64,000 nucleotides of DNA from Acidimicrobiia bacterium. Its GTDB lineage: Bacteria; Actinomycetota; Acidimicrobiia; Acidimicrobiales; JANYDT01. Location of the stretch: NCBI GenBank assembly GCA_031418035.1, contig JANOWU010000037.1:873-64872 (forward strand), written 5' to 3'. The notes below the pieces were generated by a model. The model had not been told where the DNA came from and searched no databases. It saw only the letters and a program-made list of their open reading frames with translations. Shown piece by piece: positions 36,842 through 52,044 of the stretch; position 1 is the stretch's first letter; the number at the start of each line of letters is the position of its first letter. The position numbers and the translations under genes were made by a program.

Positions 36842-38227
36842 TTACGACCAGTTTCCGGTGCGAATCTGCTTGATCAGCTCACTGACCTGTTCGTAGATCA
36901 GGTGACGTTCTTTCATTTGCTGCTGAATTTTTTCGACCGCGTGGATGACGGTCGTGTGGTCGCGGTCGCCGAACTCGCGACCGATCATCGGATATGAGTA
37001 ATCAGTAAGTTCCCGAAAGACGTACATGGCGATCTGGCGGGCGGTCACGAGCGGGCGGCGTCGGCTCTGCCCCGTCAAGTCGGCGAGTGGAAAGCCGAAC
37101 ATGTCACTGGTTGCCGCAAGGATCGCCTTCGCGGAAACCGGTCGGATTTCGTCGCCGGACACGATGTCGGTCAGAACCCGCTCGGCCATTTCGAGCGTGA
37201 GCGGGACACGGTTCAGCCCGGCGTAGGCACACACACGATTGAGTGCACCCTCCAGTTCCCGGATGTTGTCCTTGAGATGAGTGGCGATGAAGTTCAGGAC
37301 TTCGCTGGGCACCTCGGTACGTTCACGTACGGCCTTCTTCCGAAGGATGGCCACTCGAGTTTCGAGATCCGGGGGCTGGATGTCGACGATAAGTCCCCAT
37401 TCGAATCGACTTCGCAGACGATCCTCGAGCGTCGCCATTGCCTTCGGAGGACGGTCGGAGGAGATCACGATCTGGCGTCCGCTTTGCTGCAGAAAATTGA
37501 ACGTGTGGAAGAACTCCTCCTGGGTTCCTTCCTTGCCCTCCATGAACTGAATGTCGTCGATCAACAACACGTCACAGTCGTCGCGATAACGACGCTTGAA
37601 GGTCACCGTGGAGTTCGTCCGAATTGCATCGACGAACTCGGTCACGAAGGTCTCCGTCGACACGTAACGGATCCGACTCTGGGGGTAGTTCTGCCCGACG
37701 TAATGCGCGATCGCTTGCAGGAGGTGCGTCTTCCCGAGACCCGAGTCGCCGTATATAAACAAAGGGTTGTACGACTGCGCGGGCCGTTCTGCGACGGCCA
37801 TGGCTGCAGCGTGTGCAAATCGATTCGACGCGCCGATGACGAAGTCTTCGAATGTGTACCTAACATTCAGCGTGATATCGCCGGAGAACAGCGAGACGAT
37901 GGGATCCGGGGCCGGTTTGGCCGGTGTGGGCGTCTCCGGCGCAACCGTGAAGGGTCCTTCGGAGGCATCGCCTTCGAACACTTCGACGCCGACGCTCACC
38001 TGTGCACCCGTGACCTCGCGCACGACCTCGGCGATGAGGTCGAGGTATCGACCTTCGATGCGTTCTTTCGCGATCGAGTGCGGCACTGCGAGCACGACGC
38101 GGCGTTCGTCGAAAACGATCGGACGAGATGCGGCAAAGCAGGTGTTCCACGTGGCTTCGGCGACTCGGGTCCGAAGGACCGCCGCGCACTCAACCCATGA
38201 TCCCGGCCCCTGTGTGTTATCTGCCAC
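36842..38227 (-). CDS. dnaA: Chromosomal replication initiator protein DnaA
   Basis: 461 aa. AAA+ Walker A GDSGLGKTHLL, box VII, and a C-terminal DNA-binding helix region (DHTTVIHAVEKI). Confidence 0.98.
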   Translation of the reverse strand: MADNTQGPGSWVECAAVLRTRVAEATWNTCFAASRPIVFDERRVVLAVPHSIAKERIEGRYLDLIAEVVREVTGAQVSVGVEVFEGDASEGPFTVAPETPTPAKPAPDPIVSLFSGDITLNVRYTFEDFVIGASNRFAHAAAMAVAERPAQSYNPLFIYGDSGLGKTHLLQAIAHYVGQNYPQSRIRYVSTETFVTEFVDAIRTNSTVTFKRRYRDDCDVLLIDDIQFMEGKEGTQEEFFHTFNFLQQSGRQIVISSDRPPKAMATLEDRLRSRFEWGLIVDIQPPDLETRVAILRKKAVRERTEVPSEVLNFIATHLKDNIRELEGALNRVCAYAGLNRVPLTLEMAERVLTDIVSGDEIRPVSAKAILAATSDMFGFPLADLTGQSRRRPLVTARQIAMYVFRELTDYSYPMIGREFGDRDHTTVIHAVEKIQQQMKERHLIYEQVSELIKQIRTGNWS

Positions 38228-39251: not shown

Positions 39252-39525
39252 TCGACGCACCGAGTCGCCAACGCAACGAAGCTCTGGTCGTTTCGTGCGA
39301 GTCTGTATCCGTTTGATCTCCGCGTATCAGGTGGCACGGGCGGGCCGGATCTCTCCGTGTCGGTTCTATCCGTCGTGCAGTTCCTACGGCCTCGAGGCAC
39401 TTGAGACGCACGGTGCAGCTCGAGGACTTTGGTTGACCGGTCGTCGAGTTCTTCGCTGTCGCCCCGGCGGTCCGTCGGGTGTCGATCTGGTTCCGTCTCC
39501 ATCGAAGGTGCACATCCATGCTTAA
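39244..39525 (+). CDS. yidD: Membrane protein insertion efficiency factor YidD
   Basis: LISAYQVARAGRISPCRFYPSCSSYGLEALETHG is the YidD signature. The GTG start at 39244 overlaps the rnpA end. Confidence 0.85.
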   Translation: MSDRRTESPTQRSSGRFVRVCIRLISAYQVARAGRISPCRFYPSCSSYGLEALETHGAARGLWLTGRRVLRCRPGGPSGVDLVPSPSKVHIHA

Positions 39526-40534
39526 TTCCCTGTACAGCGCCCTCGGTTGGCTGTTGTCCATGTTCTACGAACTCACGAAGAGTTACGGTTTCGCCATCGT
39601 CTTGCTCACCGTGGCAGTTCGACTGGTGCTGTTTCCCCTTACGGCCAAGCAGATGCGCTCGATGCAGGGCATGTCGAAGCTGCAACCCGAACTGAAGAAG
39701 CTCCAGGCCGAGCACAAAGACGATCGCATGAAGCTGCAGGAGGAGATGACCGCCCTCTACAAGCGTGAGGGCGTGAGTCCCGTTGGTGGTTGTCTGCCGC
39801 TCATCATGCAGATTCCGGTGTTCATCGGGCTGTTCAACGTGATTCGAGGACTCACGAACTCGGGGCGTCTGGCCTGGATGCAAATCGAAGTTCCGAAACC
39901 GAAGTATCTGAATACCAGCGGAGATATGTACCGATCGATCGTGCGCAGCGGCGGTCGGCTGGTGTCGTTCGGTTTCGACTTGGCGCAATCGGCGAGCGGC
40001 GCAACGGGTGGACTGAGCAAACGGGCACCCTTCGTCATGTTGGTTGTGGCCTATGTGGTCACGGCCTTCTTGCAACAGCACCTCGCCGCCAAACGAAACA
40101 CCACGCCGCTGACCGGGCCAAACGCCCAAGTGCAGCAGATCATGAAAATTTTTCCATTGTTCCTGGGCTTCTTTTATTACACGATGCCCGCCGGCCTGGT
40201 CCTGTACTTCGTGGCGTCAAACGTGTGGACGATCGGGCAACAGGAAGTTCTTGCCCGGGTCATGCCCAGTACTCCCCCGCCGGTCGTCGATGCGCCCTCG
40301 ACAGAGAAAGTCGTGAACGAGTCGAAGGATTCCACGCCGGCGCGCTCGAAGTCTTCAGGTACGAAACCTGTTGCCACGCCGAACAGCACCACCAAGCCAC
40401 AGCCCGGATCGACCCCGCGAGTCCAACAGCAGAAACAGCAAAAAGCTGCGAACAACAGTGCCGACAACAAACCCGGCATAGGAACAAACACAGCCCGCGG
40501 CACCAACGCCGCGAAAAAGCGAAAAGGACGCTGA
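39518..40534 (+). CDS. yidC: Membrane protein insertase YidC
   Basis: MLNSLYSALGWLLSMFY...LFPLTAKQMRSMQGMSKLQPELKKLQAEHKDDRMKLQEEMTALYKREGVSPVGGCLPLIMQIPVF is the YidC/Oxa1 core. The basic C-terminal tail also fits. Confidence 0.9.
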   Translation: MLNSLYSALGWLLSMFYELTKSYGFAIVLLTVAVRLVLFPLTAKQMRSMQGMSKLQPELKKLQAEHKDDRMKLQEEMTALYKREGVSPVGGCLPLIMQIPVFIGLFNVIRGLTNSGRLAWMQIEVPKPKYLNTSGDMYRSIVRSGGRLVSFGFDLAQSASGATGGLSKRAPFVMLVVAYVVTAFLQQHLAAKRNTTPLTGPNAQVQQIMKIFPLFLGFFYYTMPAGLVLYFVASNVWTIGQQEVLARVMPSTPPPVVDAPSTEKVVNESKDSTPARSKSSGTKPVATPNSTTKPQPGSTPRVQQQKQQKAANNSADNKPGIGTNTARGTNAAKKRKGR

Positions 40535-40535
40535 C

Positions 40536-41390
40536 ATGGAGTGGGTAGAGACCACCGGTAAGACCATCGAAGAGGCAACGAGTCTTGCGCTCGATCAGCT
40601 GGGTATATCTGCCGATGACGCAGAGGTCGAAGTACTCGACGAACCGAAGAGCGGATTGTTCGGGCGAGTGCGAGCAGAGGCGCGGATCCGAGCTCGAGTT
40701 CGTCCGACCCAACCGCGCGCCAAAGATGAGCGACGCAAACCTCGAGCGAAAAAGGGCGCCGAGGCCGCGTCTGGGGAAACGCCCGCTTCCGACGAGACCG
40801 ATGCGGAGCGTTCGCCGTCGCGAGCCCCACGCTCGCCCCGGCCGAGCCGAGAACCACGTGAAGCACGCGAAGACCGTGGCGACCGTGGGCCGCGCCGTGA
40901 ACGAGGGGACCGATACGAGTCCCTCGACGCCGTTCCCGCCGAGATCGAAGAAGCCGGTCGCAAGTTCCTCGATGGTTTGCTCGGATCGATGGGCCTCACT
41001 GCCGAGATCGAAGCCGGAGTCGTCAACGACAACATGATCGAATTTCGGGCGACGGGTCGTGATCTCGGTGTGTTGATCGGTCCGGGAGCACAGACGCTCC
41101 AAGCCATCCAGGAATTGCTTCGCACTGTCATTCACTACGAAACCAACTCGAGTTCGGGACGAATACTGCTCGACGTCGCCGGATACCGCGAGAAGCGTAA
41201 AGCCGCGCTGGTCTCGTTCACGGCCAAGGTCGCCGCCGAAGTGGTTGCCTCAGGCGAGCGCCGTGCGTTTGAGCCGATGGCTGCAGCAGATCGAAAAGTT
41301 GTGCACGATGCCGTTGGCAACATCGATGGTGTGCAGTCGACGAGCGAGGGTGAAGAGCCGCATCGCTACGTCGTGCTGTTGCCGGAATAG
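40536..41390 (+). CDS. jag: Jag/KhpB-like RNA-binding protein (Jag_N, KH, R3H domains)
   Basis: N-terminus MEWVETTGKTIEEATSLALDQLG; C-terminal KH/R3H region with RKVVHDAV...STSEGEEPHRYVVL; conserved position after yidC. Confidence 0.85.
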   Translation: MEWVETTGKTIEEATSLALDQLGISADDAEVEVLDEPKSGLFGRVRAEARIRARVRPTQPRAKDERRKPRAKKGAEAASGETPASDETDAERSPSRAPRSPRPSREPREAREDRGDRGPRRERGDRYESLDAVPAEIEEAGRKFLDGLLGSMGLTAEIEAGVVNDNMIEFRATGRDLGVLIGPGAQTLQAIQELLRTVIHYETNSSSGRILLDVAGYREKRKAALVSFTAKVAAEVVASGERRAFEPMAAADRKVVHDAVGNIDGVQSTSEGEEPHRYVVLLPE

Positions 41391-41394
41391 CTGG

Positions 41395-42036
41395 TTGACC
41401 GAGTCATTGTCTGACGAGCCCCTTCTCGCGTGCCTGGAACGCGCACGCGAGTTGGGGTACCTCGGTCCTGGACCGATTGCGCGACACATCGAACATGCGA
41501 TGGGGTTTGCCGAAATCGTGGAGCGGCACACGCCGCATGTGATCCACGACGCAGTGCGGGTGGTTGATCTCGGTTCCGGCGGTGGTGTGCCCGGGCTGGT
41601 CTTGTTGCGGCGTTGGCCGCTCTCGCGCTGGTTGTTCTTGGACACCAACCAGCGGCGCATGGCAACGCTGCGCGAAGCTCTCGTCGAACTCGGCGAGGAC
41701 GGACGCGCCGAGGTGGTGTGTGGACGTGCCGAGGAGGAGTCAGGTCAACCCGGTCGACGTGGCTCCTTCGACATTGTCGTCGCACGCGGGTTCGGACCTC
41801 CCGCCGTTACCGCGGAATGCGCCGCTCCCCTCCTGGTTGTCGACGGAAGTCTCGTGGTGAGCGAACCGCCCGAGGACCGTCCCCGATGGGACGCTCCTGG
41901 TTTGGCCACGCTTGGTCTATCCGGCGATGTGGGAGTTGCGGCGGGATTTCGGTTCTTCGTCGCGACCCAGGTTTCTCCGTGTCCGGCCCGCTTTCCGCGG
42001 CGCACCGGTATTCCCGCGAAGCGCCCACTCTTTTAG
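41395..42036 (+). CDS. rsmG: 16S rRNA (guanine527-N7)-methyltransferase RsmG (GidB)
   Basis: VVDLGSGGGVPGLVL (SAM motif), VVARGF, and the position after jag. The start is uncertain: TTG at 41395 or 41407. Confidence 0.8.
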   Translation: MTESLSDEPLLACLERARELGYLGPGPIARHIEHAMGFAEIVERHTPHVIHDAVRVVDLGSGGGVPGLVLLRRWPLSRWLFLDTNQRRMATLREALVELGEDGRAEVVCGRAEEESGQPGRRGSFDIVVARGFGPPAVTAECAAPLLVVDGSLVVSEPPEDRPRWDAPGLATLGLSGDVGVAAGFRFFVATQVSPCPARFPRRTGIPAKRPLF

Positions 42037-42826
42037 ACATTCATCCTTCGAGACGCTCCCGCAACGAGTCGCCCGAGATCTCCGGCAGGTGCGACTCGGG
42101 TCGGGACCCCGGGTCAGGACACCGGTCCCCTGCGTCATGATGAGACACGATGACGTTTTAGCGGCGAGCCTCGTCGGCGGCGCCGACGGGCGTGTGACCG
42201 GACCCTGGGGATCCGCTCCACGAACCGTCGCGATTGCAATGCGGTCCGCCGCCTCAGTGTCTCGCGCCGACCGCACTTGTGGTGCGCCGAAGGGGTGGCG
42301 TTGAGCGTCGGCGTGGATGCGTGGTCGACCCGACGCCTGACCCGACGCGGCGACTCCTGGCAAGTGGTCCGGCGCGATACGGTGAAACACCCTGCGGTTC
42401 GCAATCGGTTCCATACGTGACGAACAGCGCTGGATCGAAACCGATCGTCGACGACGTGCTCCTTCTTCGAACACGTGGGTGGCAAGCTCGGTGGTCGGTG
42501 GCGTTCCGCTGGTGTTCTCCGATCGAGACGTGCACACCTGGCTCGAACAAGGGCTACGCAGTGAGAACTCGACGGGAGGTTCGGCCAAGCTTGACGGAAG
42601 CGGCCCGACGCCTCGTTGCCACTGCATCTCGCTGACAAGTGTACGTCCGCCGACTCGCTCCGACTTCGACCTTCGCCACCAGACCGAACGCCCGCCCAAC
42701 GGATCACCGCAAACTCCGGCGTCTCCCGGCGAGGTAGGGGCGGCGTCAGTTTTCACGTACATCGAGACGTGAATCGCACGACCTTCGACGATCCCTGCCG
42801 AGCCGACCGAGCCTTGAGGGCGTCGG

Positions 42827-42842
42827 TATTTCACGTGAAACA
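42827..42842. promoter_or_regulatory. parS site (TATTTCACGTGAAACA, 1 mismatch to TGTTTCACGTGAAACA)
   Basis: Read directly. Palindromic core TTTCACGTGAAA. Confidence 0.8.
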
Positions 42843-42968
42843 TCGGACGTGGATTGTGCCGTTGGCGACGCCCCGTCGTCCAGCTGGCGATGCCAAAGTG
42901 TTCGCGTGAAGTATCGGGAGCGAATAGCACCGACTACGACCTTTCTTCAGTGGGCAGTGCGGAGGCGA

Positions 42969-42984
42969 TGTTTCACGTGAAACA
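42969..42984. promoter_or_regulatory. parS site (perfect TGTTTCACGTGAAACA)
   Basis: Read directly. Confidence 0.9.
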
Positions 42985-43109
42985 TCAGTCGTGGATTGTG
43001 CCGATGGCGACGCCCCCTCCGTCTAGTTGACGGGATGCGCAGTGCTTCCGTGAACATCAGAGTGGATAGCACCGACTACGACTGTCCTTCAGCGGGCACG
43101 TGGGCGGGC

Positions 43110-43125
43110 AGTTTCACGTGAAACA
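43110..43125. promoter_or_regulatory. parS site (AGTTTCACGTGAAACA, 1 mismatch)
   Basis: Read directly. Confidence 0.85.
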
Positions 43126-43191
43126 TCAAGACATGAACCGCAACCTTCGCGCATCTCCTCCGAGGCTTCCGAGACTTTGGGCGGGCGTCGG

Positions 43192-43207
43192 TGCTTCACG
43201 TGAAACG
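43192..43207. promoter_or_regulatory. parS site (TGCTTCACGTGAAACG, 2 mismatches)
   Basis: Read directly. Confidence 0.7.
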
Positions 43208-43893
43208 CATTGCGCGCAACGTACTTCAAAACAATGCGCTTACTGAGTGGAGGGCGAGTGACCTGTCACCGAAGTGTGTTGCACGGACTTGTTGCCAACA
43301 AGGAGGCAATAGGCGATATGGTCGGCCGTAGTTCGATCGTGGCCACGGGCTGAATGAAACCCTCGGCTATGACCGGGCGAGACAGTTGGTCGAGGAAAGT
43401 GAGCGAACCGGCATTTCCGTTGCGGACTTTCGGTACGCGAAGGGTACGTGGACACCGAAACGACCGAGAGGCTCACCGACCCGTCCGGCTAGTGCTGCCG
43501 GCGCGCCTGCGGGACGTAGTGTTTCCCTCGGCTGGGAGCAGCTTGGTGTTCGGACGAACGGCAGGATCTATTACATGGAGCGATGTGCTCGTAGGACCAC
43601 GTCATCGAGGTGATGGTTCGCGGAGGCGGCAGCATGTGGGCGTGGTCGGGTCTCACTCAGCTGCCGTGGGCGGCGGCAGGGAGGACTTGTTGGCTTGTCG
43701 CCCGCGAAGGTTGGCGCCACCGTGCCAGGTTGGTGCCTGAGGCGGCGGTCACTGCGCGAACCCTGGCACTGTGGTGCCAACTTCTGACGGCGACTCGTTT
43801 CGCGGCGTGATTCGCTCAGGCCTCGAACGCCGTGCGGCCGCAGGCGCGGGACCGTGCCCGCGGCATCCCATGTCGAGCTGGCGGGAAGGGCAG

Positions 43894-43909
43894 CGTTTCA
43901 CGTGAAACA
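43894..43909. promoter_or_regulatory. parS site (CGTTTCACGTGAAACA, 1 mismatch)
   Basis: Read directly. Confidence 0.85.
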
Positions 43910-44031
43910 GGCACGTGATTGCGCCGACAGCGAATCAGTTCAGTCGAGCTGGCGGGACACGCCGGTGTGAAACATCGAGGGTGAATCCCACCGACTACGA
44001 CCGTCCTCCATCGGGCACTTGGGCGGGGCAC

Positions 44032-44047
44032 TGTTTCACGTGAAACA
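44032..44047. promoter_or_regulatory. parS site (perfect TGTTTCACGTGAAACA)
   Basis: Read directly. Confidence 0.9.
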
Positions 44048-44102
44048 TCGAAAGTGAACCGCAGACCCTCACTCTTCCCACGAGCACTCGGCAAGGTGTC
44101 GA

Positions 44103-44118
44103 CGTTTCACGTGAGACA
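44103..44118. promoter_or_regulatory. parS site (CGTTTCACGTGAGACA, 2 mismatches)
   Basis: Read directly. Confidence 0.7.
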
Positions 44119-44198
44119 TCAAATGTTAAGCCCGCATCTTTGGCGCCTCATGAACCGGGCGGGACCTACCCCCACCCGGCCCATACCGGGGACGGCAA

Positions 44199-44214
44199 TG
44201 TTTCACGTGAAACA
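44199..44214. promoter_or_regulatory. parS site (perfect TGTTTCACGTGAAACA)
   Basis: Read directly. Confidence 0.9.
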
Positions 44215-44393
44215 GCCCGTGAATGGGACCACCGGCGGTCGTGCCTCTCACGCATCAGCGCATCCGAGGGAGTGCAAGGAGATCAAAAGACCTTGGTCGC
44301 GCCCTCGGGAGCGTCGAATCGGGTGATCGGCGCCTTAGGTCGGCCATCAGGCAAGAATGTTTGCGAAATGCCGAGGAGATGCACCAGCGCGAA

Positions 44394-44409
44394 TGTTTCA
44401 CGTGAAACA
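44394..44409. promoter_or_regulatory. parS site (perfect TGTTTCACGTGAAACA), 43 nt upstream of the parA start
   Basis: Read directly. It overlaps the likely parAB promoter/leader. Confidence 0.9.
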
Positions 44410-44451
44410 CTGGAGCATCCCTTCCTGGTCGAGTGACGATCACGGTCTCGT

Positions 44452-45285
44452 ATGAAGGATCCCACCGCTATGTCCGGCACAGCACCGGCGACCTCGTTCG
44501 CCCGGCCCTTTCCCAGAACTATCGCCATTGCCAACCAAAAAGGCGGTGTCGGCAAGACGACTACCGCCGTGAACCTGTCCGCAGCTCTTGCCGACCGCGG
44601 GTACCGGGTCCTGGTCGTCGATCTCGATCCGCAAGGCAACGCAACCACCGGATTGGGCGTGAACGCTCGAAATCTGGAGTTTTCGGTCTATGACGTGTTG
44701 ATGCGCGACACGCCAATGGAGGATGCCGTCGAGGCGACGTCCGTCCAGAACCTCTTCCTGGTTCCGACGACGATCGATCTGGCCGGGGCCGAGATCGAAT
44801 TGGTACCGGCCTTCAGTCGGGAACTGAAGTTGCGGCGAGCGATTGCTCGAGTGATCGATGATTTCGACTTCATCATCATCGACTGTCCGCCGTCTCTCGG
44901 CCTCCTGACGATCAACGCCCTGGCCGCGGCGTCGGAAGTCGTGGTCCCGATTCAATGCGAGTACTACGCATTGGAGGGCCTTGGCCAGCTGCTTCGCAAC
45001 GTCAACCTGGTGCAATCGAACCTGAACCAGACGTTGGAGATCAGCGCGATCATTCTCACCATGTACGACGCTCGGACGAAACTGGCCGACCAAGTCATGC
45101 ATGAAATTCGCACCCACTTCGGTGATCGAGTGTGTCGGAACATCGTTCCTCGTAGTGTGCGACTGTCGGAGGCCCCGTCGTTCGGGCAGCCGATTACGGT
45201 ATTCGACCCCACCTCACGGGGAGCAGTGGCCTACAGGGGCCTGGCAAAGGAGATAAGTGGTGGTGCGCCAAAGCGGACTGGGTAA
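44452..45285 (+). CDS. parA: Chromosome partitioning ATPase ParA (Soj)
   Basis: Deviant Walker A IAIANQKGGVGKTTTAVNL, plus LVVDLDPQGNAT. An alternative start is ATG at 44470. Confidence 0.95.
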   Translation: MKDPTAMSGTAPATSFARPFPRTIAIANQKGGVGKTTTAVNLSAALADRGYRVLVVDLDPQGNATTGLGVNARNLEFSVYDVLMRDTPMEDAVEATSVQNLFLVPTTIDLAGAEIELVPAFSRELKLRRAIARVIDDFDFIIIDCPPSLGLLTINALAAASEVVVPIQCEYYALEGLGQLLRNVNLVQSNLNQTLEISAIILTMYDARTKLADQVMHEIRTHFGDRVCRNIVPRSVRLSEAPSFGQPITVFDPTSRGAVAYRGLAKEISGGAPKRTG

Positions 45286-46195
45286 AGGATTGGGGGCATT
45301 GCTTCCGACATCGACAGAGGCACCAATTCTCGAAGGCGGGTCCACGGTCGGGCGATTGATCGAGATCAATATCGGCGACATTCGACCCAACACCTATCAG
45401 CCTCGATCGACGTTCGACGACGAGGGCATCGAAAGCCTCGCCGCGTCTATTCGCGAGTTGGGTGTGCTGCAACCCATCTTGGTTCGCTCGACCCCCGAGG
45501 GCGGATACGAACTCATCGCTGGTGAGCGGCGTTGGCGAGCGGCTCGCCGGGCCGGGCTCAGCGTCGTTCCTGCGGTCGTGAAGTCGGCCGATGACAATGC
45601 GGCGCTGGAACAGGCTTTGGTGGAGAACTTGCATCGGGCGGATCTCAATCCGCTCGAGGAGGCGGCCGCTTTTCAGCAGCTCATTGACGATTTCGGCTTC
45701 ACCCACGAGCAGGTGGCCGATCGTGTCGGCAAGAGCCGCGCCGCGGTATCGAATACCCTGCGCCTGTTCCAACTCTCCCCGTCGATCCAGCGGTTCGTGT
45801 TGGAGGGCAAACTGTCGGCCGGACACGCTCGTTCCCTTCTCGGGACGACCGATAAGGCGTTCCAGGAGGCTCTCGCTCGCCGAATCGTGCAGGAGGAGCT
45901 ATCGGTACGGGCAACCGAGGAAGCCGTGAAGTTGCGGTTGAATCCGGCCGCCGCGAGTCCCAGGTCATCTGCAGGGCCGGGAACGGGTGCGCCGACAGCG
46001 TCGAAAACAGACCGGCCCGCCGGTCTTCTCGAGCTCGAGGAAGTCCTCGCCGGTATATACGACACCCGGGTAGCCATCCAGATGGTGCCGAACAAGAGAG
46101 GTCAGCTCACGATCGAGTTTGCCGACTTGAACGATCTGGAGCGAATATTCCACATAATGACAATCGGGGCCGCCTCCGACACCGTCGAAGGCTGA
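45257..46195 (+). CDS. parB: Chromosome partitioning protein ParB (Spo0J)
   Basis: N-terminus GLGKGLGALLP, CTP-binding/arginine-patch motif GERRWRAARRAGL, and an HTH region. The GTG start at 45257 overlaps the parA end. Confidence 0.95.
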   Translation: MVVRQSGLGKGLGALLPTSTEAPILEGGSTVGRLIEINIGDIRPNTYQPRSTFDDEGIESLAASIRELGVLQPILVRSTPEGGYELIAGERRWRAARRAGLSVVPAVVKSADDNAALEQALVENLHRADLNPLEEAAAFQQLIDDFGFTHEQVADRVGKSRAAVSNTLRLFQLSPSIQRFVLEGKLSAGHARSLLGTTDKAFQEALARRIVQEELSVRATEEAVKLRLNPAAASPRSSAGPGTGAPTASKTDRPAGLLELEEVLAGIYDTRVAIQMVPNKRGQLTIEFADLNDLERIFHIMTIGAASDTVEG

Positions 46196-46570: not shown

Positions 46571-46683
46571 TGTTGTTTCCTTTCGAGGACTGCGGGAGAA
46601 GTGCGAGAGAAGAGGGGTCGGTGGACGTTGTTGTTTCCTTTCGAGGACTGCGGGAGAAGTGCGAGAAGAGGGTCAGTGGACGT
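46571..46683. repeat. Tandem duplication (58 bp + 55 bp) of the trxB 3' end plus the trxB-trxA intergenic region, including the trxA Shine-Dalgarno
   Basis: Copy 1 is 46571-46628 and copy 2 is 46629-46683; they differ by small indels. Copy 2 contains the real trxB stop (tca at 46673-46675). Copy 1 has tcg at the equivalent position. Both carry cctttc (AAGGAAAC on the minus strand). Confidence 0.9.
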
Positions 46684-47617
46684 TGGCTTCGAGCCAGCGT
46701 TCGGCATCGATAGCTGCCGTACAACCCGAGCCTGCTGCGGTGATGGCCTGGCGGTAGGTGTGATCCTGGACGTCACCACAGGCAAACACGCCATCGACGT
46801 TCGTTCGGGAACTCTTTCCCTCCGTCACGATGTAGCCCTGCTCGTCCGTCGTGAGAATCCCCTTGAAGAGGTCGGTGTTCGGTATATGGCCGATGGCGAC
46901 GAATAGCCCCGTGACATCGAGGGTCGAGTGCATCTGGTCGACCGTGTTTTCGATAACGGCGCTTTCGAGTGATTTCTCACCATTGAGTTCGACGACCCGT
47001 GAGTTCCAGAGAAACTCGATCTTGGGATTGTTCATCGCGCGGTCCTGCATGATCTTGGACGCACGGAGCACGTCGCGTCGCACGATTACGGTGACCTTGT
47101 CGGCGAACTTGGTGAGGAAGTTCGCCTCCTCCATTGCCGAGTCGCCTCCGCCGACGACGGCGATATTTTTGCCGCGGAAGAAGAAGCCGTCACAGGTGGC
47201 GCACGTGGAAAGCCCGTGACCCATGAGTCGACGTTCGGCATCGAGGCCGAGCATCAGTGATCGAGCTCCCGTGGAGACGATGACGCTGTGGGCTTCGAAG
47301 AGGTCATCGTTCACCCACACCTTTTTGGGGTTGCTGGAAAAATCTACCTTGGTGGCCTTGGCGGTCAGGTATTCGGTACCGAAGCGCTCCGCTTGCGCGC
47401 GCATAGTGGTCATCAATTCGGGACCTTGGACACCGGCTTCGAAGCCTGGAAAATTTTCCACTTCAGTGGTCAGCATCAACTGTCCGCCTGGCTGATCGCT
47501 GGTTGAGGATATTTCCCCCTCGATGACGAGGGGTGCCAGGTTGGCTCGAGCGGTATAGATCGCGGCAGTGAGCCCGGCCGGACCAGACCCCACAACGATG
47601 ACGTTACGAACTGCCAC
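46673..47617 (-). CDS. trxB: Thioredoxin-disulfide reductase
   Basis: 314 aa with FAD motif VIVVGSGPAGLTAA, redox-active CATCDG and NADPH motif VVGGGDSAMEEA. Confidence 0.95.
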   Translation of the reverse strand: MAVRNVIVVGSGPAGLTAAIYTARANLAPLVIEGEISSTSDQPGGQLMLTTEVENFPGFEAGVQGPELMTTMRAQAERFGTEYLTAKATKVDFSSNPKKVWVNDDLFEAHSVIVSTGARSLMLGLDAERRLMGHGLSTCATCDGFFFRGKNIAVVGGGDSAMEEANFLTKFADKVTVIVRRDVLRASKIMQDRAMNNPKIEFLWNSRVVELNGEKSLESAVIENTVDQMHSTLDVTGLFVAIGHIPNTDLFKGILTTDEQGYIVTEGKSSRTNVDGVFACGDVQDHTYRQAITAAGSGCTAAIDAERWLEANVH

Positions 47618-47668
47618 GACTGCTCCTGTTCATGAATGGATTCGCGGCGACGGGCGACGAACCGTGAA

Positions 47669-47965
47669 TCAGGTTCGAGGGTGACGACGCGACCAGACCA
47701 ACAGGCCAACGAGGAAGAACATTCCCCCGAGGACGACATAGGCCGCCCAAACGGGCAAGAACCAGTCCAGAAGCCGAATGAACATGATCGTCAACAAGCA
47801 GAACAGCATGAACAAGACGCCTGCGGCCATGAGGCCGAACACCAAGAACTTGGCGGCTTTCTGTACCGGTTCGGTGGTCTTGGACTTCACGGTTCCCACG
47901 AACCCCTCGAGTCCATCCACGATTTGGGTTGCCCAGTCAGATTCCAACGCCGGTCGCTCAGTCAC
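47669..47965 (-). CDS. Small membrane protein (two predicted TM helices), function unknown
   Basis: 98 aa with hydrophobic stretches FLVFGLMAAGVLFMLFCLLTIMFI and VWAAYVVLGGMFFLVGLLVW. I recognise no family motif. Confidence 0.5.
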   Translation of the reverse strand: MTERPALESDWATQIVDGLEGFVGTVKSKTTEPVQKAAKFLVFGLMAAGVLFMLFCLLTIMFIRLLDWFLPVWAAYVVLGGMFFLVGLLVWSRRHPRT

Positions 47966-48010
47966 GCCCCAAAGCCTAGCGGCCCATTCGAACGGCGTGC
48001 ACGGTGAGGA

Positions 48011-48066
48011 GGTCTCGCGGTCTCGCGGTCTCGCGGTCTCGCGGTTTCGCGATTTCGCGATTTCGC
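48011..48066. repeat. 8-bp tandem repeat: (GGTCTCGC)x4, GGTTTCGC, (GATTTCGC)x2
   Basis: Read directly. It is intergenic, between the anti-sigma stop (48070) and the small membrane protein start (47965). Confidence 0.9.
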
Positions 48067-48069
48067 GGC

Positions 48070-49632
48070 CTACGGAACTATCGTGCAGGTTCTCGAGTCC
48101 ACGATAACGACCGTCGGGGCATCCGACGAACCAGTTACGAACGCGAACAGCACACGCCCAGCGATCGTTACGCGCCCGACGGCTCGGGCCCCAGGGACCG
48201 GGCAGCGCGCCATGCCCGACGCCGTGGTCCCATCGAACGGTGCGGCGGATGCAGCCGACGCTGTATTGGCCGGTCCGGCCGCAAACACCGTAGTGGCGGA
48301 CGCAGCTTCGAACGGTGCAGCGGCGGTCGTAGGCACGATCGTCGTTGTTACGACCGTACCCCGTTGGGCCGCGGTCTTGCGGACTGCATCGCTTGCCGAG
48401 GCCACGTCATTGAATACGCCCAGGTCACCGAGGTCGACAACGGCGACCGACGGTGTCACAGCGCTGGCCGCTGCAGTCGCGGACGCGCCTGTCGGACTCT
48501 CGGCGCTGGCCGCCTTTGGCGCTGCGGGTGCGGCTCTCTTGACAGCCTTCTTTCGAGTCGCCCCAAAGGGGCGCGTCGTTGTCACGATGTCGTCGAACAC
48601 TGGTTCCGCAGTGACGGGTTGTGCTCCATCGCCGAAGGGAGTCGCGGTCGCTTTCGTCTGAACAGCGCTCGGTTTCGTTGCCGGCGCGATGCTTCGCGTG
48701 ATGGGACGAGTGGTGGACTGGGGCGGCGTGGTGGACTGGGTAGTTGTGGTGGTGGCCGGGGGGGTGGCGGGGGTGGGAATGACCGGGTTCGGATCGAACG
48801 GGGCCGTTGCCATGTCGAGAGCCTCTGCGGCCCCGCTCGCGACGTCGGATTCCGCGGCCGCCTCGGTCTCGGGCGCGGCCCCGTTCGCGGTCGCGGTCTC
48901 GGTCTCGGGAGCAGCCTCGGGCGACGCCAACTCGCCAGCGCGACCCGGGACCGGGGCGTCTTGCGAATCCCGTGTGATCTGTACCCGGGGTTCGGTGGCG
49001 GAGGCGGGTTCGGTGATCGGGGCCACCGCAGCGGGATTGCTTCGTCGCTGTTGAAGTAGCAAGACCCCCGTGACCAGGCTCAACGCGGCTGCTGTGGCGA
49101 GAGCACGCGTGGGCGTGAGCACAGAGCCCCGGCCGGAGCCCCCAACCGAACCTCGGGGGCCACTGAACATGGACCGTGAGCCAGCCGAGCCCCGTCGCCA
49201 CCACGCCCGCTTCGCGGCGATCCGCCCCGCCGTCGGTGCTGTCTTCGGTGCAGTCGTCGGTGCAGTCGGCGAAAGATTGCGGTGCTCATCATCGAACACC
49301 GCGAGTGCTGCTGCGATGGCGTCACGGCGCTGCGTGAGGGACTCCAGCACCAGAACTGGGCGTGCGTCGCGGGTGGCGTTGGCGAGCAATGACGCAATGA
49401 GCACCGACTGCGGCGAACACATCTGGCAGGTCATGAGGTGTTGGTATTCGTGCTGCAACGCTTGCGCGGAGGCCAGGTCGCGGGCGTCGTTCGAGCGGTC
49501 TGAATCGATAGCGGCAAGAAATTCGGCCACCTCTGACTGGTTCGTCAGGTCCACGTCGCCCCAAAATGCGAGGCGCGTCGAGTCGAGATGGTCCCGTGGG
49601 CTTGTGCCGGAGAGGGGAGACTCAGTCGCCAT
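48070..49632 (-). CDS. ZAS-type anti-sigma factor with one TM helix and a long P/T/A-rich extracytoplasmic region
   Basis: The start MATESPLSG at 49632 overlaps the sigma-factor gene end. HLMTCQMC matches the HxxxCxxC zinc anti-sigma motif. The TM segment is ALATAAALSLVTGVLLL. The upstream 166 codons of track ORF 48070..50130 lie in another frame over the sigma gene and are rejected. Confidence 0.7.
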   Translation of the reverse strand: MATESPLSGTSPRDHLDSTRLAFWGDVDLTNQSEVAEFLAAIDSDRSNDARDLASAQALQHEYQHLMTCQMCSPQSVLIASLLANATRDARPVLVLESLTQRRDAIAAALAVFDDEHRNLSPTAPTTAPKTAPTAGRIAAKRAWWRRGSAGSRSMFSGPRGSVGGSGRGSVLTPTRALATAAALSLVTGVLLLQQRRSNPAAVAPITEPASATEPRVQITRDSQDAPVPGRAGELASPEAAPETETATANGAAPETEAAAESDVASGAAEALDMATAPFDPNPVIPTPATPPATTTTTQSTTPPQSTTRPITRSIAPATKPSAVQTKATATPFGDGAQPVTAEPVFDDIVTTTRPFGATRKKAVKRAAPAAPKAASAESPTGASATAAASAVTPSVAVVDLGDLGVFNDVASASDAVRKTAAQRGTVVTTTIVPTTAAAPFEAASATTVFAAGPANTASAASAAPFDGTTASGMARCPVPGARAVGRVTIAGRVLFAFVTGSSDAPTVVIVDSRTCTIVP

Positions 49633-50266
49633 GATCAATCCTTGGACGTTCGGGTTGCAGTGTTTGGTTCCCGGCGATCGACTGCGAATCCGAAACTGAG
49701 GTGGAATCGAACCGGAGAAGTGGCGCGAGCGCGGCCCGGGCGCGTGCGATGCGTGAACGTACGGTTCCACCGGGTATCTGGAGTATTTCGGCGATCTCGC
49801 GATAGTCGAGTCCGGAAACGTCTCGGAGAACCAACGGCGCTCGGAACTCCACTGGAAGTTTCGCCAGCGCTCGTCCGAGGTCGGTTGTGGCGTCGACGTC
49901 GGCGAACGCGCTGGGTGTGTCGGCGCGTCGATCGTGGTCGGCCACGACCTCGTCGTTGGGGACCGGTCGTCGTCGCTTTCGGCGCAGTTCGTCGAGCGAC
50001 GCATTGGTGGCAACGCGATAGGCCCAGGTGGTGAAGCTCGAGGTGCCATCGAATCGACCGATGCCTCGGGCAATCGCAATGAGCGCCTCCTGGGTCGCGT
50101 CGGCAGCGTCGCCATGGTCGGCGATGACACGTCGGCAGGTACTTGCTATACGGTCATAGTGTCGCTCGAGGAGGGCATTCATCGCGTCGCGTTCGCCCCG
50201 CTGCGCGGCCGCCACGAGAACGATGTCAGTTTCGTCTCGAAGACGAGATTGAGGTGGCGGCGTCAT
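49622..50266 (-). CDS. ECF (group 4) RNA polymerase sigma-70 factor, SigM-like by synteny
   Basis: Region 2 (DAADATQEALIAIARGI..F....F.TWAYRVATNASLDELRR) and region 4 (LRDVSGLDYREIAEILQIPGGTVRSRIARAR). Its position next to trxB/trxA matches the mycobacterial sigM locus. Confidence 0.85.
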   Translation of the reverse strand: MTPPPQSRLRDETDIVLVAAAQRGERDAMNALLERHYDRIASTCRRVIADHGDAADATQEALIAIARGIGRFDGTSSFTTWAYRVATNASLDELRRKRRRPVPNDEVVADHDRRADTPSAFADVDATTDLGRALAKLPVEFRAPLVLRDVSGLDYREIAEILQIPGGTVRSRIARARAALAPLLRFDSTSVSDSQSIAGNQTLQPERPRIDHGD

Positions 50267-50271
50267 GGGGG

Positions 50272-52044
50272 CTACCCGCGAAGCGCCAGTTCGGCAATCT
50301 TCACCTGGGCGACGTTTCCGACTTTCGGCCCGAGGTCAGTTATCCAGAGGAGGACGTACGTACCGGTCACCGGGGTAAGCCCGATTTTCGACGAACCCTC
50401 CGGTGCGTCGACAAGCTGGCCTCGTTGATCTCCCCAGCCATCGAGATCCTCAGAGAGCCGATCGGCGACATATACCTGTGCCGTCCAACCCCGTGTTTTG
50501 GAGACAACGTTTACTTGGCTGACGAGGCGAGGCTCATCGAGAATCATAATGACCCCGACGCCCGGTTTGCCTCGATAGAAGTTACGGGATTTGTAGGGTT
50601 CGGTCGACCAACTGGTGGACTTGTCGCGGTCGTTGAGAAACTTGAGCTCGCTGTCGTGCTCCCCGTCGGGCTCGAGCTCGAAGGAAAGGGGGCGTAGATA
50701 CGGAACCGCTGTGGTGGGGTTGTGGTTTTGATTCGCAGCGGCAATGCCGAACACTGCGCCGCCGACGAGGCCGATCAAGGGAAGCAGAACGGTGAGCAGC
50801 CGCCGGTTTCCCAAGGTTGGCCGAGTGGGTGTAACTGTGTTTCGCCGTTGTACCGCGGTCGGCTCATCCGTGCGCGAACTATCCGTACGCTTACTTGGTT
50901 GCACGGTCGTGACGTCTTCGTTGCGTCGACCGGACGGCTGCACAGTTGTCGGGTCGGCTGCAGTGCCGGCTCGGCGACCAAGCCTTCGGGCGTCACCCTT
51001 ACGTGACTGACCGGCCGCAACGTTGATCGTCGCGGGGGCGTTCCGGTCGGTGGCGGAGAGCCCGCGAGGCGGTGTGCGGTCAGACTCGGTACGGGCAACG
51101 GCGGGGCGGGCATCGTCGCCGTACCCATCAGCTCGCTCGGCGGCCTCGAGGGCTCGGGGGTTGAGGCTTCGCAGTGCCGCGGCGAGCGCTGCTGCGTCCG
51201 AGAAACGGGCTTCGGGATTCTTGGCGAGCGCTTTGGTAATGACGGCATCGAGCTCGCGTCCGATGTTCGGACGTAGTGAACGCGCCGGTCGCAAGTCCTT
51301 CCGCACGTGTTGCAGCGCCGTCGCCATATCGTTGGCACCGAGGAACGGAACCTGTCCGGTTGCCATCTCGTAGAGCAGAATGCCGAGAGAGTAGATGTCG
51401 GATCGTGCGTCGACGCGATGTCCTTCGACCTGTTCGGGTGAGACGTACTTTGCTGTTCCGAGAATGGATCCGACGTTGGTGAGATCTTCCTCGTTCTGAT
51501 TGACGCCGATGCCCTTGGCAATGCCGAAATCGACGACGCGCACTCGGCCAAAGCGGGCTCCGACTGAACCCGTTGATGTTTCCACGAAGATGTTCGCTGG
51601 CTTTACATCACGATGGACGACGCCATTACGGTGTGCGTAACCGAGGCCATCAGCGATCTCTGCGGCGATGCGAACTGCTTCGCGTAGCGTGGGCCGCCGA
51701 TCAGTCGGGCTGTTCATAAGCGTACGGAGAGTTGCTCCTCGAAGAAGCTCCATCACGAGATAGGCGCGGCGTTCGACCCGTCCCGCAGAGTTGGTGAACG
51801 AGTCGACTCCGGTGTCGTAGACGGTTACGACGTTGGGGTGGGAAAGCTTGGCGACAGCGACGGCCTCGCGTCGGAACCGCTCGATGAAGTCTCGATCGTC
51901 GGCAAGATGTGAGTGAAGCATTTTGACTGCGACGTCGCGGTCGAGTGTTTCGTCGTGAGCCTGCCAGACTTCGGCCATACCGCCACGAGCGATTGGCCGT
52001 ACGAGAACGTAGCGTCCGGCGACGTATTCGGCGACGCGAGCCAC
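50272..52044 (-). CDS. Ser/Thr protein kinase with one TM helix and a C-terminal extracellular domain
   Basis: Hanks motifs are all present: GGMAEVW, VAVKML, HRDVKPANIF, DFGIAKG, GTAKYVSPEQ. The TM segment is LLTVLLPLIGLVGGAVFGIAAA. The C-terminal domain of about 150 aa looks beta-rich. Confidence 0.9.
   Translation of the reverse strand: MARVAEYVAGRYVLVRPIARGGMAEVWQAHDETLDRDVAVKMLHSHLADDRDFIERFRREAVAVAKLSHPNVVTVYDTGVDSFTNSAGRVERRAYLVMELLRGATLRTLMNSPTDRRPTLREAVRIAAEIADGLGYAHRNGVVHRDVKPANIFVETSTGSVGARFGRVRVVDFGIAKGIGVNQNEEDLTNVGSILGTAKYVSPEQVEGHRVDARSDIYSLGILLYEMATGQVPFLGANDMATALQHVRKDLRPARSLRPNIGRELDAVITKALAKNPEARFSDAAALAAALRSLNPRALEAAERADGYGDDARPAVARTESDRTPPRGLSATDRNAPATINVAAGQSRKGDARRLGRRAGTAADPTTVQPSGRRNEDVTTVQPSKRTDSSRTDEPTAVQRRNTVTPTRPTLGNRRLLTVLLPLIGLVGGAVFGIAAANQNHNPTTAVPYLRPLSFELEPDGEHDSELKFLNDRDKSTSWSTEPYKSRNFYRGKPGVGVIMILDEPRLVSQVNVVSKTRGWTAQVYVADRLSEDLDGWGDQRGQLVDAPEGSSKIGLTPVTGTYVLLWITDLGPKVGNVAQVKIAELALRG

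Follow-up and report, generated by a model that had tools for sequence, protein, structure and literature searches.

A satellite-like parS array at the predicted chromosomal centromere of an Acidimicrobiia bacterium

The DNA described here is a window of 64,000 nucleotides from an Acidimicrobiia bacterium, taken from contig C37 of a metagenome-assembled draft genome (5.04 Mb in 319 contigs, 62% GC). Between the rsmG and parA genes of this window lies an array of parS sites, the 16-bp palindromes on which the partition protein ParB would load. The array is best explained, with a probability of roughly 0.78, as a young centromere satellite with a fast turnover, in which the accessory motifs next to parS are most likely relics of duplication. 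The same estimate covers the identity of the region as the chromosomal centromere and predicted ParB loading platform. All coordinates below are those of the window.

With the consensus TGTTTCACGTGAAACA and at most two mismatches, nine parS sites are found within 42827-44409, where 0.18 would be expected by chance. They start at 42827, 42969, 43110, 43192, 43894, 44032, 44103, 44199 and 44394, and four of the nine are perfect. At the same threshold, the whole genome contains no match outside the array. A whole-genome search also finds the ParB_N domain in a single gene, parB, which follows parA, and the genome lacks a second ParB-like protein. The locus is a classical oriC-proximal par locus. 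The region is read as the chromosomal centromere because all nine genomic parS lie within 1.6 kb between rsmG and parA, with dnaA 4.6 kb to the left and a single ParB in the genome.

The array is built from a monomer of about 71 bp. This starts with parS, followed by TC(G), 3-5 nucleotides, the half-site-like element GTGRAY, nGCaCCGAC..CGAC, about 25 nucleotides more and a G-rich end. An nhmmer profile of the monomer finds nine monomers in the window, with E-values from 6e-15 to 1e-9. When the parS columns are taken out of the profile, the same nine monomers are the only matches in the whole genome.

The monomers come in three sub-types, which are named O, E and T in this analysis, and these are arranged as higher-order repeats. 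The O-type (m1, m3 and m7) has a live parS followed by GTGGATTGTGCCG. The E-type (m2, m4 and m8) has a dead parS, then GTGRAT, the 13-mer CACCGACTACGAC and a GGGCGGG tail. The T-type comprises m0, m5 and m9. The higher-order structure follows from the flanks, which are 76-89% identical between monomers of the same type and some 60-66% across types.

A sequence-only reading of this DNA had described repeat units of about 140 bp. These are real: Tandem Repeats Finder reports a period of 142 bp, with 2.1 copies and 81% matches, and BLAST aligns unit A with unit B at 80% identity over 163 bp. The basic period is about 71 bp however, and each 140-bp unit turns out to be an O-E dimer, one monomer with a live and one with a dead parS. 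The claim that the block 42969-43207 is repeated at 43894-44118 holds up as well, since this is an O-E-T block of about 240 bp (42970-43142 matches 43895-44063 at 74% over 179 bp). The shorter units at 43110-43191 and 44032-44102, which had been called paralogous, are both T-type monomers, m5 and m9. In addition, 42751-42841 matches 43112-43206 at 75% over 97 bp.

The 13-mer is present exactly where it had been reported in the three units, at 42928, 43070 and 43989. The G-rich tract said to precede the next parS can be made out clearly in units B and D and ahead of 43192; in unit A it is degenerate (GTGCGGAGGCGA).

All monomers are on the forward strand. The first recognisable one is m0 (42750-42826, T-type), which has the dead parS GTTTTCACGT--ACA, a profile E-value of 1e-9, and 75% identity to m5 plus the parS of m6. 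It is followed by m1 (42827-42897, O-type), with a parS at 42827-42842 that has one mismatch and GTGGAT at 42849-42854, and by m2 (42898-42968, E-type), with a dead parS and the 13-mer at 42928-42940. The next pair consists of m3 (42969-43039, O-type), with a perfect parS at 42969-42984, and m4 (43040-43109, E-type), with the 13-mer at 43070-43082 and the tail GGGCGGGC. The parS of m4 has been lost through one substitution and two 1-bp deletions. The longest monomer is m5 (43110-43191, T-type, 82 bp), with a parS at 43110-43125 that has one mismatch.

The head of m6 (43192-43208) carries a parS with two mismatches at 43192-43207 and is interrupted by an insertion. Its presumed tail (43838-43893) is of the O-type, reads GTCGAGCTGGCGGGA and shares an exact repeat of 15 nucleotides with 43943-43957. 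Then come m7 (43894-43961, O-type), with one mismatch in its parS at 43894-43909 and GTGATT at 43915, and m8 (43962-44031, E-type), with a parS that lacks its left arm, the 13-mer at 43989-44001 and the tail GGGCGGGGCAC. The last full monomer is m9 (44032-44102, T-type), with a perfect parS at 44032-44047. Three sites remain on the parA side: m10 at 44103-44118, with two mismatches and a GAGACA arm; m11 at 44199-44214, perfect, followed by GTGAAT and with a weak monomer match (E=5e-4); and m12 at 44394-44409, perfect and promoter-proximal, within the sole part of the spacer that is conserved across lineages.

In total 4 of 13 parS are dead. Often this is caused by 1-bp deletions in the T-run, but substitutions in the arms also occur.

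The array is divided into two parS blocks, and what separates them is inserted foreign DNA and not eroded repeat units. The insertion of about 630 bp begins 1-2 bp past the parS at 43192-43207. Its first segment, 43209-43506 on the forward strand, is a pseudogene fragment, namely the 3' end of a class-II fumarase/aspartase gene (the last ~100 codons). It is 90.7% identical at the nucleotide level to C4:20316-20615, with the homology starting from about 43209. A tblastn search matches it in two frames with a stop codon, which means that the fragment is frameshifted. The parent open reading frame (ORF) on contig C4 encodes 448-462 aa with Lyase_1 and FumaraseC_C domains, and the intact gene region is C4:19230-20618.

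The next segment, 43507-43696, has no counterpart in the C4 copy. It is a gap in the alignment and has no other match in the genome. The remainder, 43697-43837, is 90% identical to C4:20641-20780 and consists of a palindromic hairpin repeat, resembling repetitive extragenic palindromic (REP) elements, plus sequence from downstream of the parent gene. The hairpin has a folding energy of -65.5 kcal/mol (z=-5.4) and occurs at some 27 genomic loci in both orientations. As an element it is about 90 bp long (43697-43795), with 20-bp arms, and is similar to REP elements or miniature inverted-repeat transposable elements; other copies are at C6:4424-4516, C6:9243-9324 and C56:9461-9565.

No target-site duplication or terminal inverted repeats are evident at the insertion of the fumarase fragment. 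Eroded monomers were also considered for the spacer 43208-43893, but the profile gives E-values of about 5-9 there, and the spacer is accounted for by the gene fragment and the REP element. Joined together, the head of m6 and the 56 bp beyond the insertion give 73 bp with an O-type tail, although the profile match is weak at 7 bits. On this basis m6 would be a single monomer split by the insertion. Given the insertion and the rejoined halves of m6, the two blocks were probably once one array. The array thus probably tolerates about 630 bp of junk, made up of a gene fragment and a hairpin repeat.

Comparison strains were located by exact-protein look-ups with the 271-aa ParA, RpmH and the proteins P0004 and P0007; Jag and P0002 had no match. 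The sister strain found in this way is GCA_031362515.1, which is also seen in GCA_031374345.1, SRR20217213 and SRR20217172. Its ParA protein is identical, its parAB genes share 95.5% nucleotide identity with those of the window, and four-fold degenerate sites are 84-95% identical. The array of the sister strain is split over two contigs, and all four parA-side contigs end inside it, which leaves a readable part of 1.1 kb.

In this readable part, the O, E and T types recur in at least 13 monomers, with GTGGAT or GTGGAA, with GGGCGGGGCAG ahead of parS, and with three 13-mers, two of them exact and one with a single change. Again 4 of 13 parS are dead. The arrangement differs from that in the window, in that the repeat is of about 225 bp and has the order O-O-E. 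The parS of the E-type monomers is perfect in two out of three cases in the sister strain, and dead in all three in the window. Individual monomers are still recognisably related, for example m9, which is 79% identical to a T monomer of the sister strain, and m4, of which the flank is 86-89% identical to E-type monomers there. Towards parA, homology between the two strains runs from 44298 only.

Between strains, the best pairs of monomer flanks reach 76-89% identity, where four-fold degenerate sites have 84-95%. The monomer flanks therefore diverge at least as fast as synonymous sites, and taken as a whole they are unconstrained.

A third lineage, L277, is informative because of its proteins: its ParA and ParB have 99.6% and 95% amino-acid identity to those of the window, with 72-74% identity at four-fold degenerate sites. 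Its 1.5-kb spacer contains five parS, and the monomer, the 13-mer and GTGRAY are all absent from it. The sole part of the spacer that is shared is 44340-44469, a promoter-proximal stretch of 130 bp that includes the last parS. This is 91% identical, where four-fold degenerate sites reach only the 72-74% just mentioned. Four parS and no accessory motifs are found in a more distant lineage, L267 and L272, with some 80% identity. The monomer family thus appears restricted to this genome and its sister strain, among all sequences compared.

L277 has its own peculiarities. At 2265-2310 of its sequence, slippage has left GTTTCA, the left half-site, four times in a row and fused to a parS, and at 2560-2800 the rsmG-parA spacer has an unrelated repeat of about 45-55 bp (..GACTCCGACAC..). 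These suggest that the rsmG-parA spacer is hypervariable in every lineage.

The wider relatives are 33 genomes of the same genus, family and order, which have between one and five parS upstream of parA. Across 140 parS half-flanks from these 33 genomes, there is no GTGRAY at +3 to +14 and no GGGCGGG within 20 bp, and the monomer profile without parS does not match any of them. The only flank feature that the relatives have in common is found on either side of parS: a T at +1 (39%) and a C at +2 (49%). Given this pattern, the "ATC" that follows parS in the window is a clade-wide extension of the palindrome (GA-parS-TC) and does not belong to a special module. Order-wide, parS appears to be weakly extended to the 20-bp palindrome GA-TGTTTCACGTGAAACA-TC, in a count where orthologous sites were not corrected for shared ancestry. 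Species G001, from the same genus, was tried as a neutrality test, but with 35-37% identity to the window its four-fold degenerate sites are saturated and unusable.

Metagenomes give the same picture. Among 80 metagenome ParA loci there is no 13-mer and no match to the profile, and in a search of metagenome contigs for ParA, the closest was at 79%. The composite of GTGAA, 15-17 nucleotides and the 13-mer has at least 119 single matches across 185,579 species, none of them near a parS, and these are chance matches. In the genome itself there is one further exact copy of the 13-mer, on contig C27. The sequence-only reading had held that the idea of functional flanks would fail if the flanks diverged at the same neutral rate as decayed units and the motifs were absent from orthologous arrays. 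On the second point, absent they are, in L277, in the 33 relatives and in the 80 metagenome loci.

Other lineages amplify parS in ways of their own. Spacings of 45, 85 and 172 bp are found in L139, L141 and L095. In L123 (CXWK01000177.1, 2946-3300), an independent amplification has a 19-bp tandem unit, TGTTTCACGGGAAGCAggg, two to three times; there a whole block of about 300 bp is duplicated with identical flanks, and the sites have a central CGGG variant. That independent amplifications have other unit sizes points to a general process, and argues against a specific spacing rule.

Some flank motifs in relatives are of another kind. A conserved GGTCCTTGAC(T/C)T is found in many members of the family (L032-L037, L044, L045 and L063), 5-20 bp past the parS nearest to parA, and it is absent from the genus of the window. 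This is probably the -35 region of a parA promoter under autoregulation by ParB. For the window itself, a scan of 41900-44600 for sigma-70 promoters and terminators gives zero promoters and one terminator-like site where 2.1 are expected, so that a promoter reading of the array's motifs is unsupported. A scan of 36-50 kb against Rfam, with E-values up to 1, has no match in the array.

How could such an array arise? A plausible ancestor would be a monomer with one 16-bp parS, the TC flank typical of the clade, the half-parS-like element GTGRAY and a remainder of about 45 bp. Tandem amplification of this monomer of about 71 bp would have followed, presumably through unequal recombination or slippage of replication between identical palindromes. 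The monomer would then have diverged into the types O, E and T, and re-amplification of these would have given the higher-order units. If ParB here behaves like canonical chromosomal ParB, ParB-CTP dimers would load at each intact parS, slide off, and build the partition complex for ParA and the SMC (structural maintenance of chromosomes) complex.

In a related system one parS suffices, and such redundancy would leave only weak selection on each site, hence the decay. New copies of parS made by duplication or unequal exchange would replace the dying ones. GTGRAY, CACCGACTACGAC and GGGCGGG would then travel with parS as parts of the monomer, without being needed for ParB function. That they most likely hitch-hike in this way follows from L277, the closest lineage outside the pair that shares them, which has nearly the same ParA and ParB and does without.

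The suggestion that recent duplication might explain the similarity outside parS is thus supported as far as duplication goes. All units derive from one monomer of about 71 bp, and the family is found only here and in the sister strain, but the duplications are not especially recent, as paralogous flanks within the window are 20-45% apart. The alternative of a spacing constraint of about seven helical turns did not survive, given monomer lengths of 68-82 bp in the window and 71-79 bp in the sister strain. Helical phasing was rejected for the same variation in length: 71 bp corresponds to 6.8 turns and 142 bp to 13.5, while unit lengths vary by up to 14 bp.

Several observations weigh against reading the motifs as mere relics. 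In the three 140-bp units, a 20-bp stretch, CGAATAGCACCGACTACGAC, is 80% three-way invariant, where the live parS reaches 88% and other flank segments merely 34-50%. The invariant run of 13 bp has P=0.002 in a column shuffle over the three units, in a test that was prompted by the data and that included poorly aligned columns. The 13-mer is intact although the parS of the very same monomers has decayed. GTGRAY is kept in most of 21 aligned monomers and in all three sub-types. It also resembles half-parS heptamers of Pseudomonas aeruginosa, for example GATCCAC, which is the reverse complement of GTGGATC. The ParB of that species binds half-parS heptamers in vivo, among them GTTCCAC, GTTTCAC and GATCCAC (PMC5961200). 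The heptamers in the window, GTGGATT, GTGAATA, GTGAACC and GTGAATC, match 5-6 of 7 positions of the parS arm or of such bound variants, and the sister strain has GTGGATC and, in two monomers, the exact half-site GTGGAAC.

From these points one can construct a second centromere model, in which a species-specific accessory module made of a third half-site and CACCGACTACGAC was recruited to the satellite for extra ParB or for a second centromere protein. GTGRAY would be a weak third half-site for extra ParB, and a second factor would bind the 13-mer, either alone or together with the G-rich tract. A candidate would be a protein that locks the ParB clamp or organises the array, analogous to KorA beside KorB sites. 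The 13-mer does behave as the slowest segment of the flank, and it is exact in five out of six E-type monomers across the two strains. Weak binding of ParB at GTGRAY is conceivable by analogy with the P. aeruginosa sites. But the motifs are absent from every other lineage's array that was examined, including the one with a ParA 99.6% and a ParB 95% identical. There is no second ParB-like protein in the genome, the 13-mer is not enriched elsewhere in it, and the offset between GTGRAY and parS is not fixed but ranges over 5-7 bp. The 13-mer is moreover specific to the E-type, so most live parS in the window have no copy downstream. When five independent E-type flanks of the two strains are compared, no window varies less than the 13-mer (1 change in its 13 columns, where the 53 columns overall have 26), but the signal weakens to P=0.06. 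The expectation that flanks evolve at a neutral rate is therefore borne out for the flanks overall and less well for the 13-mer. A second binding activity is disfavoured by the absence of the motifs elsewhere and by flanks no more alike than four-fold degenerate sites, and an accessory module of this kind is unlikely.

Gene conversion or recent unequal exchange could also produce local excess identity in the 13-mer and the E-type tail, with neither selection nor simple descent involved. Units A and B do look like a mosaic: identity is 89% in the first 28 bp past parS, drops to 55% over the 29 bp that follow, and is back at 90% around the 13-mer. The flank of m4 is nearer to E monomers of the sister strain (0.86-0.89) than to its own paralogues, and the sister array holds near-identical higher-order copies that break every assembly. 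Conversion would however need the same 13 bp as its tract in three separate copies, and no longer shared tracts surround the 13-mer in unit A. As a full explanation it is improbable, more so than the accessory module, though its effects are not separable from weak selection with the available sequences. For the slow evolution of the 13-mer itself, selection, conversion tracts and chance are indistinguishable on these data.

It is very improbable that the array is an artefact of assembly, either a chimera of strains or repeats collapsed or expanded in a metagenome-assembled genome. The draft does have 319 contigs, and four independent contigs of the sister strain all end inside the array. Yet the units in the window differ by 20-45%, well above the level that confuses an assembler, and the array sits inside a 65-kb contig with normal flanks. 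Also, the same monomer types were assembled independently from another sample.

Clusters of parS are not new. Corynebacterium glutamicum has ten parS, of which a single one suffices, and its degenerate sites do not recruit ParB (PMC7083940). The present array is alike in its 16-bp consensus, in having multiple redundant and mostly intergenic sites near oriC and parAB, and in a canonical ParB with ParB_N, HTH_ParB and ParB_C domains; its degenerate copies are likewise expected to be inactive. It differs in having nine sites in 1.6 kb of a single spacer, against ten in 35 kb, and in its tandem monomers of about 71 bp, higher-order repeats, dead copies and junk insertion within the array. In comparison with actinobacterial parS clusters, the structure here differs even between strains at 95.5% identity.

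The closest functional analogue would seem to be sopC of the F plasmid. This has 12 direct repeats of 43 bp, each with a 16-bp inverted repeat, and relatives have 3-17 copies (PMC3177203). In sopC, bases outside the 16-bp site add nothing to binding specificity, and terminal or individual variant repeats are non-binding; the authors of that paper found arrays of this type on plasmids only and none on chromosomes (PMC3177203). Both arrays consist of head-to-tail repeats with one 16-bp palindrome of the ParB family each, in our case nine monomers that match the profile. The sopC repeats have a fixed length of 43-45 bp and are near-identical, while the monomers described here are 68-82 bp long, 20-45% diverged, divided into sub-types, and chromosomal. 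The site is also a parS of the Spo0J/ParB type, and not the TGGGACCNNGGTCCCA of the SopB type.

Half-parS sites have been described for P. aeruginosa, Vibrio cholerae ParB2 and Burkholderia cenocepacia (PMC5961200). GTGRAY is similar in that it is a degenerate parS arm, and two of its variants, GTGGAAC and GTGGATC, belong to the heptamers that are enriched at ParB peaks in chromatin immunoprecipitation (ChIP). Those sites are scattered genome-wide however, while GTGRAY lies 5-7 bp away from a complete parS, and related arrays lack it. In composite centromeres, like the P1 A and B boxes or KorB-KorA, there is a second motif too, but here the second motif is not conserved together with ParB, as it is absent in L277 where ParB is 95% identical.

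In the centromeric satellites of eukaryotes, monomer types are re-amplified as units of several monomers, and the arrays of close lineages are not alike. Insertions of foreign DNA occur in these arrays, and boxes bound by protein are present in only some monomers. The analogy with the present array is one of process only: this is about 1 kb against megabases, and the binding site and the protein are unrelated. In most descriptions, chromosomal parS sites are a few isolated palindromes, and a satellite organisation of such sites is a modest novelty.

What the array offers is a compact, sequence-resolved case of centromere DNA with a turnover no slower than that of synonymous sites, while its ParA and ParB remain nearly unchanged. 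Turnover of centromere DNA under a conserved binding protein is also seen in eukaryotic satellites and in plasmid sopC. Redundancy of parS would allow single sites to decay and junk to be inserted. There is also a caution here, which is that conserved-looking motifs next to repeated binding sites may be pure hitch-hikers. The proper comparison is with the corresponding array in the nearest lineage without the repeat family. Should the 13-mer or the half-site really be bound, chromosomal parS arrays would have their first accessory element.

The genes around the array come in the order dnaA (minus strand), rpmH, rnpA, yidC, jag, rsmG, array, parA and parB. The dnaA gene is at 36842-38227 on the minus strand and adjoins rpmH. 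Pfam identifies yidC (39479-40534), jag/khpB (40536-41390) and rsmG, which ends at 42036 and is followed by a gene-free spacer of 2.4 kb up to parA.

The first part of this spacer, 42037-42749, is non-coding and has no recognisable monomers (the best profile match is E=0.45, at 42425-42482). Its GC content is flat over codon positions and it has no homology elsewhere in the genome, but from about 42257 onward it is some 77% identical to the spacer of the sister strain. By coding potential and tblastx, codon periodicity and real homologues are absent from 42037-42830, 43500-43700 and 44119-44451. Pfam finds no match for the long ORFs at 41917-42930 and 42135-42707 (both minus strand) and at 43354-43740 (plus strand).

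The parA gene (44470-45285, plus strand) matches Pfam AAA_31, CbiA and ParA, and its exact 271-aa product is recorded in other assemblies. There are two in-frame ATGs, at 44452 and 44470, and public gene calls in four assemblies start at the second. The longer form of 277 aa, starting at 44452, has no exact-match protein in the look-ups. The parB gene (45257-46195, plus strand) matches ParB_N (2.7e-35), HTH_ParB (2.3e-36) and ParB_C, and is followed by trxB, identified by Pfam on the minus strand. The genome has seven WhiB-family genes; among 14 control genomes, this family is present only in Corynebacterium, which identifies the bacterium as an actinobacterium.

Beyond parB the window takes on a different relationship. 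The stretch 46675-50358, from trxB through a pair of genes for an extracytoplasmic function (ECF) sigma and anti-sigma factor, is 96.4% identical to L272, L273 and L275 (ENA ERZ28573533 and others). In this same lineage parAB, jag and dnaA are merely 77-81% identical to the window. The breakpoint in identity falls between parB and trxB, at 46590-46675. From these identities, the segment beside the par locus looks like the result of a recent recombination or horizontal exchange.

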